Source: Candidatus Baldrarchaeota archaeon (lineage in GTDB: Archaea > Asgardarchaeota > Baldrarchaeia > Baldrarchaeales > DXJG01). From it: a DNA stretch of 32,000 nt. Each line of letters begins with the position of its first letter. Positions within the stretch are counted from its first letter, which is position 1. The stretch spans positions 60,001 to 92,000 of the forward strand of contig DXJG01000007.1 in assembly GCA_019056805.1 (NCBI GenBank). The letters are read 5' to 3'. Under the pieces are notes generated by a model. That model was not told the origin of the DNA. It saw only the letters and a list, made by a program, of their open reading frames with translations, and ran no database searches. A program made the position numbers and the translations under genes. This document shows positions 9,059-15,384 of the stretch, in pieces.

Positions 9059-10189
9059 CTGGCTAATAGCGATTCCAAATATATAACATATGAAGATTTG
9101 ATTGGAAAAGAAGGATGGGAATTGGTAAAAAGACATGGGAAAAGTCCAGTAAAACTTATTAAAATAGCCGGAAAGGAAAAGGTAAAGGAAATATTTAGGG
9201 AACTAAGCAAATTTGTAGGAACTGTGGTTATAGGAAGAATATTCGGAATTTCTCCCCGATATGTTCGTGATCTCTTTGAGAAACTTGAAATACCCCGACC
9301 AAAGGAAAGGGAAAAGAAATGGTTCGCACCCTATTCTGAAAACGTTGACAAACCTTTATATTTTGCAAATATAAAAAATCGTAGGCTTGCAATATACGGA
9401 ACAAAATTATCTCCATTGGACGCACATTTAATAGGATTAATTCATGCGGATGGAAACATAGTAACCAATAGAAGAGATTGGTACTACCGTGTCAATATTA
9501 TACAAACATCTCTGGAACGATTTCCATACATTTGTGAGTTATATTTCCGATATTTTGATGAACAAAGAATACAAAGACATCAAACTATTTATGTAGAATT
9601 TCATAAGAGTAAAGTGATAAAGGAAAGTAATAAACTTAGACGTGCCAAAGTAAACGTGGCAACAAAAACAATACATAATTATGAAGACATGAGACTAGTA
9701 CTGAATCTTGGATACAAGTTATATAAAGAAAAAAAGGCAAATAGTTATAAATTGGGTATATCAAATAGAAGATTAATTTCTCTTTCAATAAAGCGCAGAC
9801 CTTATCTGGATTACGTTTTGAAATGGATAAGTAAGGATAAAGGGCTTTTTCTCCAATGGTTTAGTGGATTTCTTGAAGGAGACGGATATATTAACTTGTA
9901 TTGGATAGAAGTCAAAAACACCGAAAAAATTTTCATTGACTATATCAAGAAACAATGGAAGAAATATGGCATAATATGGAAACCTCCATACGTTCGCAAG
10001 CCTCAATCACTTTCAAATTCTTACGGAATAGAAAGCAAGAAAATTAATTATGTAATACGTGTCTTTAATAGCAAAGATAGAATTCCCCTTCTCCAAGAAA
10101 TTTTACCTCACATAATATTTCCAGATCTTATAGCCAAAGTAAGTTCCATTTTGGAAAGAAAAACGATCAAGAAACTGAATGGTTGTTGA
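9059..10189 (+). CDS. Free-standing two-motif LAGLIDADG homing-endonuclease-like protein with N-terminal HTH-like segment
   Basis: Motifs AHLIGLIHADG and WFSGFLEGDG; HTH-like VIGRIFGISPRYVRDLF; very basic protein. The frame is open back to a CTG at 9059, 6 nt after GAGGTGA (9046-9052). The ORF track starts at TTG 9098. Confidence 0.8.
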   Translation: MANSDSKYITYEDLIGKEGWELVKRHGKSPVKLIKIAGKEKVKEIFRELSKFVGTVVIGRIFGISPRYVRDLFEKLEIPRPKEREKKWFAPYSENVDKPLYFANIKNRRLAIYGTKLSPLDAHLIGLIHADGNIVTNRRDWYYRVNIIQTSLERFPYICELYFRYFDEQRIQRHQTIYVEFHKSKVIKESNKLRRAKVNVATKTIHNYEDMRLVLNLGYKLYKEKKANSYKLGISNRRLISLSIKRRPYLDYVLKWISKDKGLFLQWFSGFLEGDGYINLYWIEVKNTEKIFIDYIKKQWKKYGIIWKPPYVRKPQSLSNSYGIESKKINYVIRVFNSKDRIPLLQEILPHIIFPDLIAKVSSILERKTIKKLNGC

Positions 10190-10446
10190 TCGTTCGAAAT
10201 TTTGTGTTTAAGGAGAGGACTAAGCATTGGATTGGAAACGTGGTCATGTTTATATTATGTGCACCTTTAGCGTATTTCCTTGGATTTGGAATTATCGGGG
10301 TAATAGCGGCATTAATCGCTAGTATGGTTGAACACATTGAAAAAATAGGTGGTAAATTTATAGATGACAATATAACGGTTCCAATAAGTAGTTTCATAGT
10401 GTTAAGCATTTTTACATTGATGGGTGTTCCATATATATCGCTATGA
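10183..10446 (+). pseudogene. 5'-truncated dolichol/polyprenol kinase (CTP_transf_1/SEC59-like); C-terminal part only
   Basis: IVRNFVFKERTKHWIGNVVM...IASMVEH...IDDNITVP is the C-terminal signature of the family. The in-frame upstream sequence (stop at 10078-10080) is not kinase-like. Confidence 0.7.
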
Positions 10447-11992: not shown

Positions 11993-13518
11993 ATGTTTCG
12001 TAGAATCACTATAACTTTGCTTATTGTAATGCTATTATTTCTAAGTGTATCTCCGCTTACCGGTTATTGTTCGAGTGCAGATAGAAATGTTTGGGCACGT
12101 GAAATGCCTTTTTGGAAAACAATGGAACCTAGACTAAAAAATACGAAGAAACAAGTAATTATACTTGGAAAATCCACCCATTAGACCTAGAATACCTTAA
12201 TAAATTAGAGTTAAACTCAACGGTATACGTAGAAATTTACACCTTAAATCCCGTGGAAACCACAATCCGCTCCAATAAACTAAGCGAAAAAGACCTAACA
12301 ACCACGTACTACGTTTATCAAGCAAAGGAAGAACATGTAAGGACGCTTGAGAAAATACCCCACACATACTTCTACAAAAGCATATTTCAACCATGCATAT
12401 GCATGAAAACCCAGAAAAAACACATCACCAACATAGCTACACTACCCTTCGTATACTGCATCAGAGTTATTCCACCGGCAAAAGTATGTGATGTAAAAGT
12501 GAGTGAAGCTAGGGAAATAGATGATATAGCTTATGTTCAGCAAAATGAGGATAGCAGCGTTGATAGTTGGATCGACATAGCTGTAATCGACACTGGATAC
12601 GACTACTATGAAGATGATTTAACTCCCACGATCCGTGAAGCAGAAGATAACATAGAATACACACATGATTTCACAGATGGAGATAGTGATGTCACTGATG
12701 GTGATAATCACCACGGTACTACAGTGTTAGACATATTAGCTAGAGCTTTAGGAGACACAGGTGACGACGATTGGACGTACGAAGACCCAAAAATATATTA
12801 TGTTCTCAAGGCTGGAGAAGGTGATACCATCGATCAAACTGCTGCTAGAAGAGCAATGGAATGGTGTCTCCAAAATGCGGTGGAAATTATTTGCATAAGC
12901 TGGGCTATCGAAGGGAGTGAGGACAGCGATAGATGCGATGGTTATTGGTGTGGTTTGTTTAAGAATGGCGCTGAAGCAGGTAAGTTCTGGGTAGGTGCCG
13001 CAGGAAACGAATATAAAACCGATGCAGTTGGATACCCAGCAAAAAGCTTCTACGTGATAGCAGTTGGAGGATACGACGAGGTAGACTACTCAAACAAAAT
13101 AGTTCACCGCGCAGACTTCTCAAACCACGGATGGATAAAGTATGAGTGGACAGTTTGGTGGTTCTGGAAAGGTGAGTGTGAGGTTTGTAATGAGGCGGAA
13201 TCCATATATAGTAATGGAGATCACAAAGAGTTTAAGCCTCAAATATATGATGCTGGAGTTATACTGCCTCCTCCTCTAAGTCCTCCAGACTTCAGTAGAA
13301 AAGATTTTGTTGAGGGGACAAGCTACACAGTACCGCTTGTCGCCGCAGCTATAGCCATCGGTGCTCTAAGTTCATATATAGATTATAATTTTCCAACACT
13401 TCGCATAGTTCTTTCCGACTGCCATGAGTGGAATGTTGCATCCCCCTGGGCTTCAGCTCAATGGGGAGATGTGGTTGACGCCCACACCCTATGGCATGGA
13501 CACCACGTATCTGAATAA
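11993..13518 (+). CDS. Secreted subtilisin-like S8 serine peptidase, split by a -1 frameshift near 12136-12142 (about 508 aa if joined)
   Basis: ORF 11993-12184 carries a signal-peptide-like N-terminus. The -1 frame is open from 12133 to 13518 with triad motifs AVIDTG, HHGT and GTSYTVP, plus oxyanion AAGN. Confidence 0.85.
12136..12167 (+). promoter_or_regulatory. Candidate -1 frameshift signal: A-AAA-AAT heptamer, 9-nt spacer, CAAGTA-atta-TACTTG hairpin
   Basis: The heptamer is phased correctly in the upstream ORF (cta aaa aat). Hairpin at 12152-12167. Confidence 0.45.
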
Positions 13519-13520
13519 CC
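13471..13520 (+). repeat. 50-nt direct repeat, copy 1 (3' end of the subtilase including its stop)
   Basis: Identical to 14402-14451. Confidence 0.97.
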
Positions 13521-13564
13521 TATTTCACCCATTTTATTTTATGGAAATTTGTGGGGGATACGTA

Positions 13565-14359
13565 ATGATTGGTAAATTTGTAATGTTTATTAAGCCGACT
13601 AGGTTGAAAATTGTAGTTACAGCTGTAATTGCTTTGGTTGCGTCTCTTCTTTTTTGTGGATATTATACTCATAGTATACCTGAGGTTGAAACTATTTGGG
13701 TAAGTCCTCTCCTATTTCCAACAATTAAATTTTACAAGATTCCGGAAAGAATTGAGTGGGAGGAGCCTGAAAACATTCCTATTCCCCTGCCCTCCTGGGT
13801 GAAACATTTCATAGTAAATTTCAAAATAACTCTGCTTCCTCCTAGTTTCCCCAGATATTGGCTTCCATTTTACTGGCTGTTTCAAAAAGTCCCAAAACTC
13901 TTTGTTCTATTATTTTTCACAAACCTCCCCTACTGGTACTTCATGGCTTGCATATTAGAGCCGTTTCTAAGTCGTTTTTTGAAGCCACTTGAAGCTAAGC
14001 TTAAACCTGAGGGCCCAGTTACTAAGGCTCGGTTGGTTACCTTTGCGTCAATATTTCACTTGCTTGGCGGAATTTTCATCCTCTTCCATATAATTGTTAC
14101 CGATGCTCATAAAATAGTTCCATTCGATTTTTATATGGTTCCGCTTTCTATGCTTTTTATTGTGAATTTTTTGGCTGCAATCTTCATGTGGTATTGTTTA
14201 AAACACAAAGGTAAATTATCGATTTTAGTTTTTACCGCAGCGTTTTTCATGCTCGGCTTACCATGGGAATATTCCATGCCGTTTGTGAGAGTTAGCACTG
14301 TAATCAGCATGATACCACTAATCCTCCTCACAATAAACCGCCTGTATTATAAGAAGTAA
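13565..14359 (+). CDS. Multi-pass membrane protein of unknown function, paralog 1
   Basis: ATG 13565 follows GGGGGA and aligns with the paralog start (MIGKFVMFIKPTR / MISRFVMFIKPTR). Several hydrophobic segments. The longer track ORF overlaps the subtilase. Confidence 0.8.
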   Translation: MIGKFVMFIKPTRLKIVVTAVIALVASLLFCGYYTHSIPEVETIWVSPLLFPTIKFYKIPERIEWEEPENIPIPLPSWVKHFIVNFKITLLPPSFPRYWLPFYWLFQKVPKLFVLLFFTNLPYWYFMACILEPFLSRFLKPLEAKLKPEGPVTKARLVTFASIFHLLGGIFILFHIIVTDAHKIVPFDFYMVPLSMLFIVNFLAAIFMWYCLKHKGKLSILVFTAAFFMLGLPWEYSMPFVRVSTVISMIPLILLTINRLYYKK

Positions 14360-14374
14360 GGGTGGATTATAGTT

Positions 14375-14451
14375 CCCTATGCTTCAAGCCAGTGGGGGCA
14401 CGTGGTTGACGCCCACACCCTATGGCATGGACACCACGTATCTGAATAACC
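14375..14451 (+). pseudogene. Orphan subtilase C-terminal tail, containing copy 2 of the 50-nt repeat (14402-14451)
   Basis: Reads PYASSQWGHVVDAHTLWHGHHVSE* versus PWASAQWGDVVDAHTLWHGHHVSE* in the full gene. Confidence 0.85.
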
Positions 14452-14496
14452 CTATTCATTTATTTTATTTAAATGAGAATTAATGAGGGTTATACA

Positions 14497-15384
14497 ATGA
14501 TTAGTAGATTTGTAATGTTTATTAAGCCAACCAGAATAAAAATTACAACTACAATTATAATTGTATCAATAGCATCATTTTTCTTCTGCGGAATCTATAA
14601 ACCTCCTCAGGTAGCCATAATACCTGGACTTCTAGTTATTTGGATAAGTCCTCTCTTATTCCCGGCAGCTCTGTTATATAATTTTCCAACACTTATAAGA
14701 GTGGAGGACGGGGTTCCAAAGAACATTTCCATTCTTTTACCGTCTTGGATGGTGGAACGTTTTGATATACGCTTTGAGATATCTATTTTCCCCTCAAAAA
14801 ATACAAGATGGAGCGGAATATACCTATTTCTGTTTCAAGGAGCCCCAAAACTCTTTGTTCTATTATTTTTCACAAATCTCCCCTACTGGTACTTCATGGC
14901 CTGCATATTAGAACCGGTTGTGAGGCCTTTTCTGAAGTCACTTGAAGCTAAACTTCAATCTGAGGTTCCAGTTTTCAGGTCTCGACCAATTACATTTGCA
15001 GCAATACTTCATCTACTTGGTGGAATTCTTATGTTTCTTTACATAGTTATTACTGATGCTTACGCTATACTTCCTGATTTCTTCCGTATTTACAAAACAG
15101 TTCACAAAATATGTTACCTCATCTTCATACTAGTTTTTTCAATACTTTTCGTGGTGAACTTTGTTGCTGCGATTTTTCTATGGCGTTGTTTAAAGCATGG
15201 AAATAAACTAACAATTCTAGTTTTTGTCTCAGCACTTTACATTCTTCTGCCATGGGTGTATCCCATGGTGATTGCAAGGATAAGTGCAGCAGTCAGCATA
15301 ATTCCACTAATTCTCATAATAATAAACCGCTTTTACCATAAAAAAGTAAGAGTGAATTGTAGTTCCACTTACCCTTATAGTTGA
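14497..15384 (+). CDS. Multi-pass membrane protein of unknown function, paralog 2
   Basis: ATG 14497 follows GAGGG. Shares the identical peptide PKLFVLLFFTNLPYWYFMACILEP with paralog 1. Confidence 0.8.
   Translation: MISRFVMFIKPTRIKITTTIIIVSIASFFFCGIYKPPQVAIIPGLLVIWISPLLFPAALLYNFPTLIRVEDGVPKNISILLPSWMVERFDIRFEISIFPSKNTRWSGIYLFLFQGAPKLFVLLFFTNLPYWYFMACILEPVVRPFLKSLEAKLQSEVPVFRSRPITFAAILHLLGGILMFLYIVITDAYAILPDFFRIYKTVHKICYLIFILVFSILFVVNFVAAIFLWRCLKHGNKLTILVFVSALYILLPWVYPMVIARISAAVSIIPLILIIINRFYHKKVRVNCSSTYPYS

Follow-up and report, generated by a model that had tools for sequence, protein, structure and literature searches.

A putative module of a secreted subtilase and a polytopic membrane protein, probably acquired and apparently in decay, in an Asgard archaeon

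This study concerns a locus in a 32,000-nucleotide (nt) stretch of DNA from a Candidatus Baldrarchaeota archaeon (the window: contig 15, 60001-92000, of a 1.92 Mb assembly that is 91% complete), in which a gene for a subtilisin-like protease of family S8 is followed by a membrane-protein gene (mem1), an orphan piece of protease tail and a second membrane-protein gene (mem2). We propose, with a probability of roughly 60%, that the locus is a horizontally acquired, decaying two-component module in which an S8 subtilase secreted by the Sec route is paired with a cognate membrane protein, polytopic and of an undescribed family. In this genome two such modules that had diverged from each other (S8a-mem1 and S8b-mem2) would have been fused head to tail, and unequal or illegitimate recombination, or deletion, at about 20 nt of microhomology would have removed S8b except for its last ~30 codons, the present orphan tail. 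Multiplication of the membrane gene would proceed by unequal recombination, the recombining unit beginning within the 3' end of the protease gene, and only those duplicated or surviving units that carry a piece of this 3' end could be expressed. The protease and the membrane protein would act together at the cell surface.

In archaea of sediments and vents, secreted peptidases are commonly taken simply as feeding enzymes. The S8 clade described here is rare, and at each locus examined the protease goes together with a membrane protein that belongs to no known family. The evolution of the clade resembles that of conflict genes, with patchy distribution, repeated loss of the protease while the partner is kept, accumulation of diverged copies, and mosaicism of alleles. 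The module of protease and membrane partner is previously undescribed, and its general interest lies in the conserved pairing and in this conflict-like evolution; the window locus itself appears to be a decaying copy, in which the orphan tail represents a recombination scar. If the partner is a shield or inhibitor, the two would form a new kind of archaeal antagonism/immunity pair and would illustrate gene flow linking Bathyarchaeia with Asgard archaea. If it is an anchor or maturation factor, it would show how archaea that have no wall keep a secreted protease at the cell surface. Intact pairs in Bathyarchaeia make the coupling of protease and partner testable.

The order of the four elements had been read correctly in a first-pass annotation of this DNA, as had the exact recurrence, 931 nt further on, of the last 50 nt of the protease gene (13471-13520 = 14402-14451, 50 of 50 positions). 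The exact match is not extendable on either side, and a search of the whole assembly found two copies, both in this locus. Outside the block the two units have diverged. The 27 nt ahead of copy 2 were rightly described in that annotation as homologous but diverged, being identical to copy 1 at 19 of 27 positions (70%) and encoding PYASSQWGH in place of the PWASAQWGD of the protease. The intergenic stretches 3' of the block are 65-70% identical, with indels, while mem1 and mem2 are 70-80% identical as DNA and 52-56% identical as protein. Three details had to be amended: the protease is not one intact open reading frame (ORF) but is divided between a signal-peptide ORF and a main ORF in different frames, mem1 begins at 13565 rather than at the upstream ATG at 13424, and the tail relic stands in frame with mem1, immediately 3' of its TAA stop. 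The features of the locus are collected in Table 1.

Light is shed on the second tail by a near-conspecific contig from a vent metagenome (L004; labels of this form, and those beginning with G, are our own). Its upstream flank is 94% identical to that of the window, and the adenine deaminase gene downstream is shared. Between the same flanking genes, L004 carries a ~430-nt 3' remnant of a protease gene, S8b, and then a single membrane gene. This tail and the N-terminal half of the membrane gene are ~97% identical to unit 2 of the window, and the diverged codons of the 27-nt stretch are shared as well. Because L004 shares these codons, the relic in the window is best regarded as the remainder of the second allele S8b, which supports the earlier suggestion that copy 2 stems from another protease allele. 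The resident gene (S8a) and S8b differ by ~10% in their conserved segments, mostly at synonymous positions, and both were therefore evidently working genes before truncation; two hypervariable patches separate them, located ahead of the catalytic Ser and immediately ahead of the tail. The membrane genes have a composite history of their own. Comparison of L004 932-1747 with mem2 (14497-15384) gives 95.5% identity in the N-terminal half and 53% in the C-terminal half, while the C-terminal half of the L004 protein is 75% identical to mem1; being nearer to mem1 than to mem2 in this half, it marks the membrane genes as mosaics. At the boundary between mem1 and the relic lies a short junction stretch that is found after the stop codons of both membrane genes and resembles S8 codons, which places the join in short microhomology, as would be expected for unequal or illegitimate recombination.

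The main ORF of the protease matches Peptidase_S8 (PF00082, E 8.6e-20, 71.6 bits against a cutoff of 21.8), and the catalytic triad and oxyanion Asn follow one another in family order (IDTGYD, HHGTT, AAGNE, GTSYT) and are invariant in the alignment of the clade. Matches to IetS (E 0.003) and to mycosin (25 bits against a cutoff of 279) were set aside as generic S8 similarity only. The protein has a signal peptide and lacks a membrane anchor of its own. Uninterrupted homologs in the clade are single ORFs of 502-509 amino acids with a signal peptide, a propeptide and several invariant Cys residues. In the window no single frame is open from signal peptide to stop, the two frames differing at a run of six A residues (A6). 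We take this break to be a slippage mutation that has probably left the protease gene broken, since homologs are uninterrupted at the site and relatives carry their breaks elsewhere. The exact repeat comprises the last 16 codons; they encode the motif that is best conserved in the family, GDVxDxHTLWH, which ends the catalytic domain even in longer members in which extra domains follow. The loop at 13261-13330, where the window protein has a unique Pro-rich insertion, could be a specificity or partner-contact loop.

Breakage of the protease is common to the relatives of this locus. In all loci seen that carry the mem1/mem2 family (family A), the S8 gene is broken or reduced to a 3' remnant, and the lesions are of several kinds: an A-run frameshift in the window, a 5' deletion in L004, a clean 653-bp internal deletion in G001 relative to L013, at least two A-run frameshifts in L013 (one of them in the S8 tail), a frameshift in L018/L019 that is identical in two samples and, in three samples (L030-32), fusion of the signal peptide to the last ~60 residues. 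Both membrane genes of the window are intact, as are those of L004 and L030-32. The in-frame internal deletion of L030 (4784-5035; also in L031 and L032) yields an 83-residue ORF that overlaps the membrane gene start. The ORF is conserved across the three samples and may encode a small secreted protein, or it may be a mere scar.

Tail relics also recur, between or before membrane genes, in independent loci, as the first-pass annotation had anticipated. In the lineage represented by L018, L019 and L033, of which L033 continues L019 through a 141-nt overlap with 100% identity, the order is a frameshifted protease, membrane genes d1 and d2, a tail relic and d3, with a further relic at the d1/d2 junction; the relic copies of this second locus lie at L018 4824-4907 and L033 167-194. 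Here the start codon of the membrane gene is placed ~35 nt inside the protease tail. The recurrence of the scars is readily understood: the start region of the membrane gene abuts or overlaps the protease 3' end, and a copy that lacks this end loses its own start region. The same type of scar in separate lineages points to a constraint imposed by the start region of the downstream gene and not to chance breakpoints. Neither a tail relic nor a spacer was found between the tandem genes of a second partner family, family B, in L015/L016.

The S8 clade is small, with 9 proteins among 5.8 billion, most of them from metagenome-assembled genomes (MAGs) of Bathyarchaeia or from sediment or vent metagenomes. 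Of 301 genomes sampled from the window's phylum, 2 carry it, both of the window's own genus, as do 2 of 350 sampled from Bathyarchaeia. In every clade locus examined (~12 independent loci, from Bathyarchaeia and this Asgard genus), the S8 gene has as its direct neighbour a gene for a polytopic membrane protein that belongs to no known family. This neighbour lies downstream in L014 (one gene), L015/L016/L017, L024, L027, L028, L018/L019 (two or more genes) and G001/L013, and upstream in L020 and L022/L023. Copy number per locus varies from 1 to 3. The two partner genes of L015/L016 are 42% identical to each other, and L017 ends within the first. Family B supplies the partners in L014, L015, L020, L022, L024, L027 and L028; comparison of the two families with hhalign detected no relation (probability 0.5%). 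Intact protease-partner pairs are present in L015, L024, L027 and L028, and all family-B pairs are intact. Family-A homologs are directly behind an S8 gene or its remnant in the window, L004, G001/L013, L018/19+L033 and L030-32; no S8 remnant was seen in the short contigs L005 and L029, with ~200 nt of upstream sequence each. Since the adjacency survives changes both of gene order and of partner family, it is good evidence for functional coupling, and we consider protease and membrane partner to be probably coupled, leaving aside the kind of coupling. Two of the family-B loci, L014 and L015, come from the same Bathyarchaeial MAG (M10_bin139), where they are separate and intact, L014 having a single family-B gene beside its S8 gene and L015 a pair. 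The second gene of this pair is 55% identical to the single gene of L014 and 42% identical to its own neighbour.

In two further genomes of the genus, G001 and G002, the slot by the CDP-alcohol phosphatidyltransferase gene holds an ABC transporter of MacB/FtsX type instead of the S8-mem1-mem2-adenine deaminase set (L036, G001:C77, 2600-6300; L034, G002:C154, 1-767), which marks this part of the chromosome as variable. The protease gene has a GC content of 41.5%, against 36.5% in its surroundings. Patchy occurrence, the variable slot and the GC contrast together suggest that the module is an accessory element, probably acquired by horizontal transfer.

Both mem1 and mem2 have a GGGGG/GAGGG motif ahead of the start codon. 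At the end of mem2, an extra A relative to L004 in an A6 run removes the stop that follows HKK and adds 12 residues. Breaks in A-runs recur at these loci, being seen in the window S8 gene, at the end of mem2 and twice in the L013 S8 gene. Roughly six transmembrane (TM) helices are predicted in each of the two proteins, and the distribution of charges, read by eye, suggests that the N terminus is inside and that a loop of ~70 residues lies outside after the first TM helix. No match to either family, A or B, was found in Pfam, NCBIfam or PADLOC, and the ESM Atlas returned just unnamed low-score clusters (best score 0.81-0.85). Motifs in mem1 resembling those of CPBP/Abi-like immunity proteins were weighed by eye, and no profile match supports them. 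Family A has very few members, with 4 proteins recovered by a word-indexed search and 12 representatives among 1.84 billion by a profile search. In alignments that include mem1 and mem2, the part common to the family is an N-terminal module of ~140 residues, composed of TM1, an extracytoplasmic loop rich in Pro and aromatic residues, and a TM helix with [HN][IL]PYW. Short members have nothing beyond this module, and one protein carries two such modules fused. The AlphaFold2 model of full-length mem1 (6 sequences; predicted local distance difference test, pLDDT, 53.7) is too poor for a fold search. The model of the N-terminal module (residues 1-150, 16 sequences) reaches pLDDT 77 and a predicted template modelling score (pTM) of 0.68; with it, Foldseek found nothing at E < 0.27 in the PDB or the AlphaFold Database clusters. 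A selection test on the orphan membrane genes gave 1 synonymous and 0 nonsynonymous differences among L030-32 and 6/6 between mem2 and L004, too few differences in either comparison.

Polymorphic toxin systems such as Rhs and contact-dependent inhibition (CDI; Zhang et al. 2012, PMC3482391) had suggested to the first-pass annotation a protease-toxin array in which the orphan tail is a toxin tail. The resemblance is real in outline. In both cases a secreted-protein gene precedes a small cognate gene, and diverged downstream genes stand in tandem, each behind a 3' piece of the gene upstream. Mosaic alleles, a patchy distribution and survival of the downstream gene after loss of the upstream one are shared as well. 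Nevertheless, the analogy fails on its defining feature, because the window locus has no variable C-terminal toxin domain. The C terminus of the S8 protein is a conserved motif, the two tails are identical over their last 16 codons, the variable stretch is just ~9-14 residues, and the fragment comprises the last ~30 codons of the conserved catalytic domain, for which overlap with the membrane gene start is the simpler cause. The orphan-cassette form, an S8 3' fragment with a membrane gene, occurs in the window and in L018/19+L033; the fragment contains no toxin domain and is explicable by the same overlap. A gene is always present beside the S8 gene that takes the toxin position, but in L020 and L022/23 it lies upstream, and an immunity role for it is putative. 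The downstream genes of the window differ from those of the toxin systems in encoding polytopic membrane proteins of no known family, and the protease is broken in every family-A locus. In the described polymorphic toxin systems, moreover, subtilisin domains are processing proteases and not the toxin (PMC3482391).

The other precedent that had been invoked, antagonism by haloarchaeal halolysins, is weaker than was assumed. It likewise involves an archaeal secreted S8 protease, one with a role in cell-cell competition, but HlyR4 (with HalH4 or HmHapP) has no direct inhibitory effect and acts by cutting secreted precursors, which yields antimicrobial peptides; the text searched describes neither a membrane immunity gene beside it nor an array of cassettes (PMC12893001). 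The window host is an Asgard archaeon and its protease falls in a different S8 clade. All relatives of the flanking DUF5814 helicase are Asgard (42-48% identity to named lineages), so that a haloarchaeal frame of reference does not apply. As described, a hypervariable gene module of Thermococcales is comparable in that it, too, is archaeal and combines a large gene for a secreted or surface protein with variable genes downstream, and a role in conflict or self/non-self recognition has been proposed for it; it differs in centring on an immunoglobulin (Ig)-domain protein rather than a protease (PMC8416519). Unequal recombination in tandem paralog arrays is similar in its microhomology junction, upstream-gene fragment between copies, mosaics and homogenised tracts; in contrast, the same S8 3' scar here recurs in separate lineages. 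Dedicated partners of S8 proteases are represented by PrtP-PrtM, in which a lipoprotein peptidyl-prolyl isomerase from a neighbouring gene serves maturation, and by PopC-PopD, in which a subtilisin has an operon-encoded cytoplasmic inhibitor. As in the present case, an S8 gene is coupled to one adjacent gene that controls its activity or maturation; unlike the present case, the partners are not polytopic membrane proteins, and they are not known to form arrays or to leave tail relics.

The proposal of a protease-toxin/immunity locus therefore stands as regards linkage to S8 genes, variable copy number and recurring tails, and falls short in parts of its toxin analogy. That the protease serves as a weapon against competitors, with every membrane protein acting as the cognate immunity factor and the array built from captured foreign tail and immunity cassettes, appears unlikely. 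Such a history would fit the strict linkage, the arrays of one to three diverged copies with recurring tails, membrane genes that remain intact after protease loss (L004, L030-32) in the manner of orphan immunity genes, the mosaicism of mem2 and its L004 counterpart, the hypervariable patches by the active-site Ser and before the tail, and a partner family that is swapped (A for B) around a conserved protease. Set against this are a relic that is a conserved end of a catalytic domain, with 16 of its codons identical to the resident gene, the processing role of subtilisin domains in known toxin systems, the indirect action of HlyR4, the broken protease of all family-A loci, the window included, the missing relic between the family-B tandem pairs of L015/16, and the lack of any PADLOC or other conflict-system signature. 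It is doubtful, too, that the module forms a protease-based competition system whose partner shields the producer, with the costly protease being lost, diverged shields being stacked and the module moving between Bathyarchaeia and Asgard archaea. Decidedly unlikely is a docking or maturation partner, which would hold the protease at the surface or aid its folding or activation, so that peptide products stay near, the duplicates being ordinary paralogs. Adjacency in either gene order across ~12 loci, intact family-B pairs, a protease with a signal peptide and no anchor, a family-wide C-terminal motif that could be a docking site, and the lactococcal PrtP-PrtM precedent agree with it; yet an anchor should decay with its protease, and intact membrane genes stand beside deleted proteases in L004 and in the three samples of L030-32, while strongly diverged arrays and mosaic alleles are unexpected for a housekeeping anchor. 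Because the membrane gene outlives the protease, diverged copies are stacked and alleles are mosaic, we somewhat favour a protective role, as a shield against such proteases, over one in anchoring or maturation.

Two other explanations address single features of the locus. The 50-nt block might be kept for a role at the DNA or RNA level, as a promoter-proximal operator, leader or recombination site for the downstream membrane gene, rather than for what it encodes or through gene conversion: it lies ~45-95 nt ahead of the start codon of both mem genes, no other stretch is 100% identical in units otherwise 70-80% identical, and S8 3' ends are kept ahead of mem genes in several lineages. This is improbable, given that the RNA fold of the 50-mer and of both upstream regions is not better than that of shuffled sequences (50-mer z = +0.25), that the orthologous block of L004 has 2 mismatches in 50 nt to either window copy, a divergence similar to that of the sequence around it, and that the encoded peptide is the most conserved motif of the family, also in long members in which protein continues beyond it. 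An AT-rich, TATA-like sequence lies downstream of the block and not inside it; a scan for Sigma-70 promoters and terminators, which is ill-suited to archaea, gave results at chance level. Identity of the block would arise by chance with P ~0.005 at ~10% divergence, and with P ~0.03 at ~20% third-position divergence over the 16 codons. The most economical account of it is strong protein constraint together with probable gene conversion between the copies within this genome. Equally improbable is that the protease is not a pseudogene and that a programmed -1 frameshift or slippage leaves the locus fully functional. A slippery heptamer of canonical X XXY YYZ form (A AAA AAT, 12136-12142) is located exactly at the frame junction, and the -1 product matches homologs across the join. 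The site, however, is not conserved: intact homologs are uninterrupted there, relatives are broken at other, non-homologous positions and by deletions, and other changes of A-run length, at the mem2 stop and in the L013 S8 tail, look like plain slippage mutations.

The reading that we prefer, a decaying module of subtilase and membrane partner, has several points weighing against it. Its history fits either of two routes: an old tandem of two complete modules may have lost S8b in the window and S8a-mem1 in L004, or S8a-mem1 may have been inserted into an S8b-mem2 locus. Zero differences over 50 nt is just moderately unusual, and gene conversion is for this reason a process that we infer. The protease is broken in every family-A locus, so the window module may have no present function, and some family-A membrane genes are broken as well, by a TAG in G001 and by frameshifts in L013 and L005. 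What appears to be one conserved partner may be two unrelated ones, A and B. Finally, the proposed interaction and function of the pair rest on sequence comparison.

Table 1. Features of the subtilase and membrane-protein locus, in coordinates of the window
Feature	Position	Strand	Basis or remark
5' ORF of S8 gene: Sec-type signal peptide and propeptide start, 63 amino acids, ends at TAG	11993-12184	+	Aligns to N-termini of intact homologs P0007, P0009, P0011
A6 run, break of S8 frame	12136-12141	+	-1 shift or A7 ancestor restores ...RLKKYEET... seen in homologs
Main S8 ORF, 461 codons open, 421 amino acids from GTG 12253: rest of propeptide and catalytic domain	12133-13518	+	PF00082
S8 motifs	Asp 12586-12603; His 12709-12723; Asn 12997-13011; Ser 13315-13329	+	Motif coordinates and family alignment
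Hypervariable loop just 5' of catalytic Ser	13261-13330	+	Against L004 allele: 10/20 codons nonsynonymous, plus indel
C-terminal motif GDVxDxHTLWH, family-wide	within 13465-13515	+	Family alignment
S8 tail copy 1, left end of repeat unit 1	13424-13520	+	Exact 50 nt = 13471-13520
mem1, 264-residue polytopic membrane protein, ~6 TM, family A	13565-14359	+	No Pfam, NCBIfam or PADLOC match
Putative recombination junction, ~21 nt	14356-14376	+	Matches stretch after mem2 stop at 18/21; resembles S8 codons EW(I/N)V.P
Orphan S8 tail relic, ~30 codons, allele S8b	14359-14451	+	Exact 50 nt = 14402-14451; tblastn-type match E 9.6e-10
mem2, 295-residue mem1 paralog	14497-15384	+	A6 run 15340-15345 (A5 in L004) removes ancestral stop

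Two observations concern neighbouring DNA. Upstream of the S8-membrane array of L018/L019, one sample has a tyrosine integrase gene and the other a gene for a zinc-ribbon protein (L019 409-1353 vs L018 1395-2387), while the array itself is 99.65% identical from ~520 nt upstream of the S8 start; the module may adjoin or ride a mobile element. In the window, at 9098-10446 upstream of the protease, a LAGLIDADG-type ORF (PF14528, E 1.9e-5) abuts an ORF for an 87-residue membrane protein that is 86% identical to a sequence of G002.

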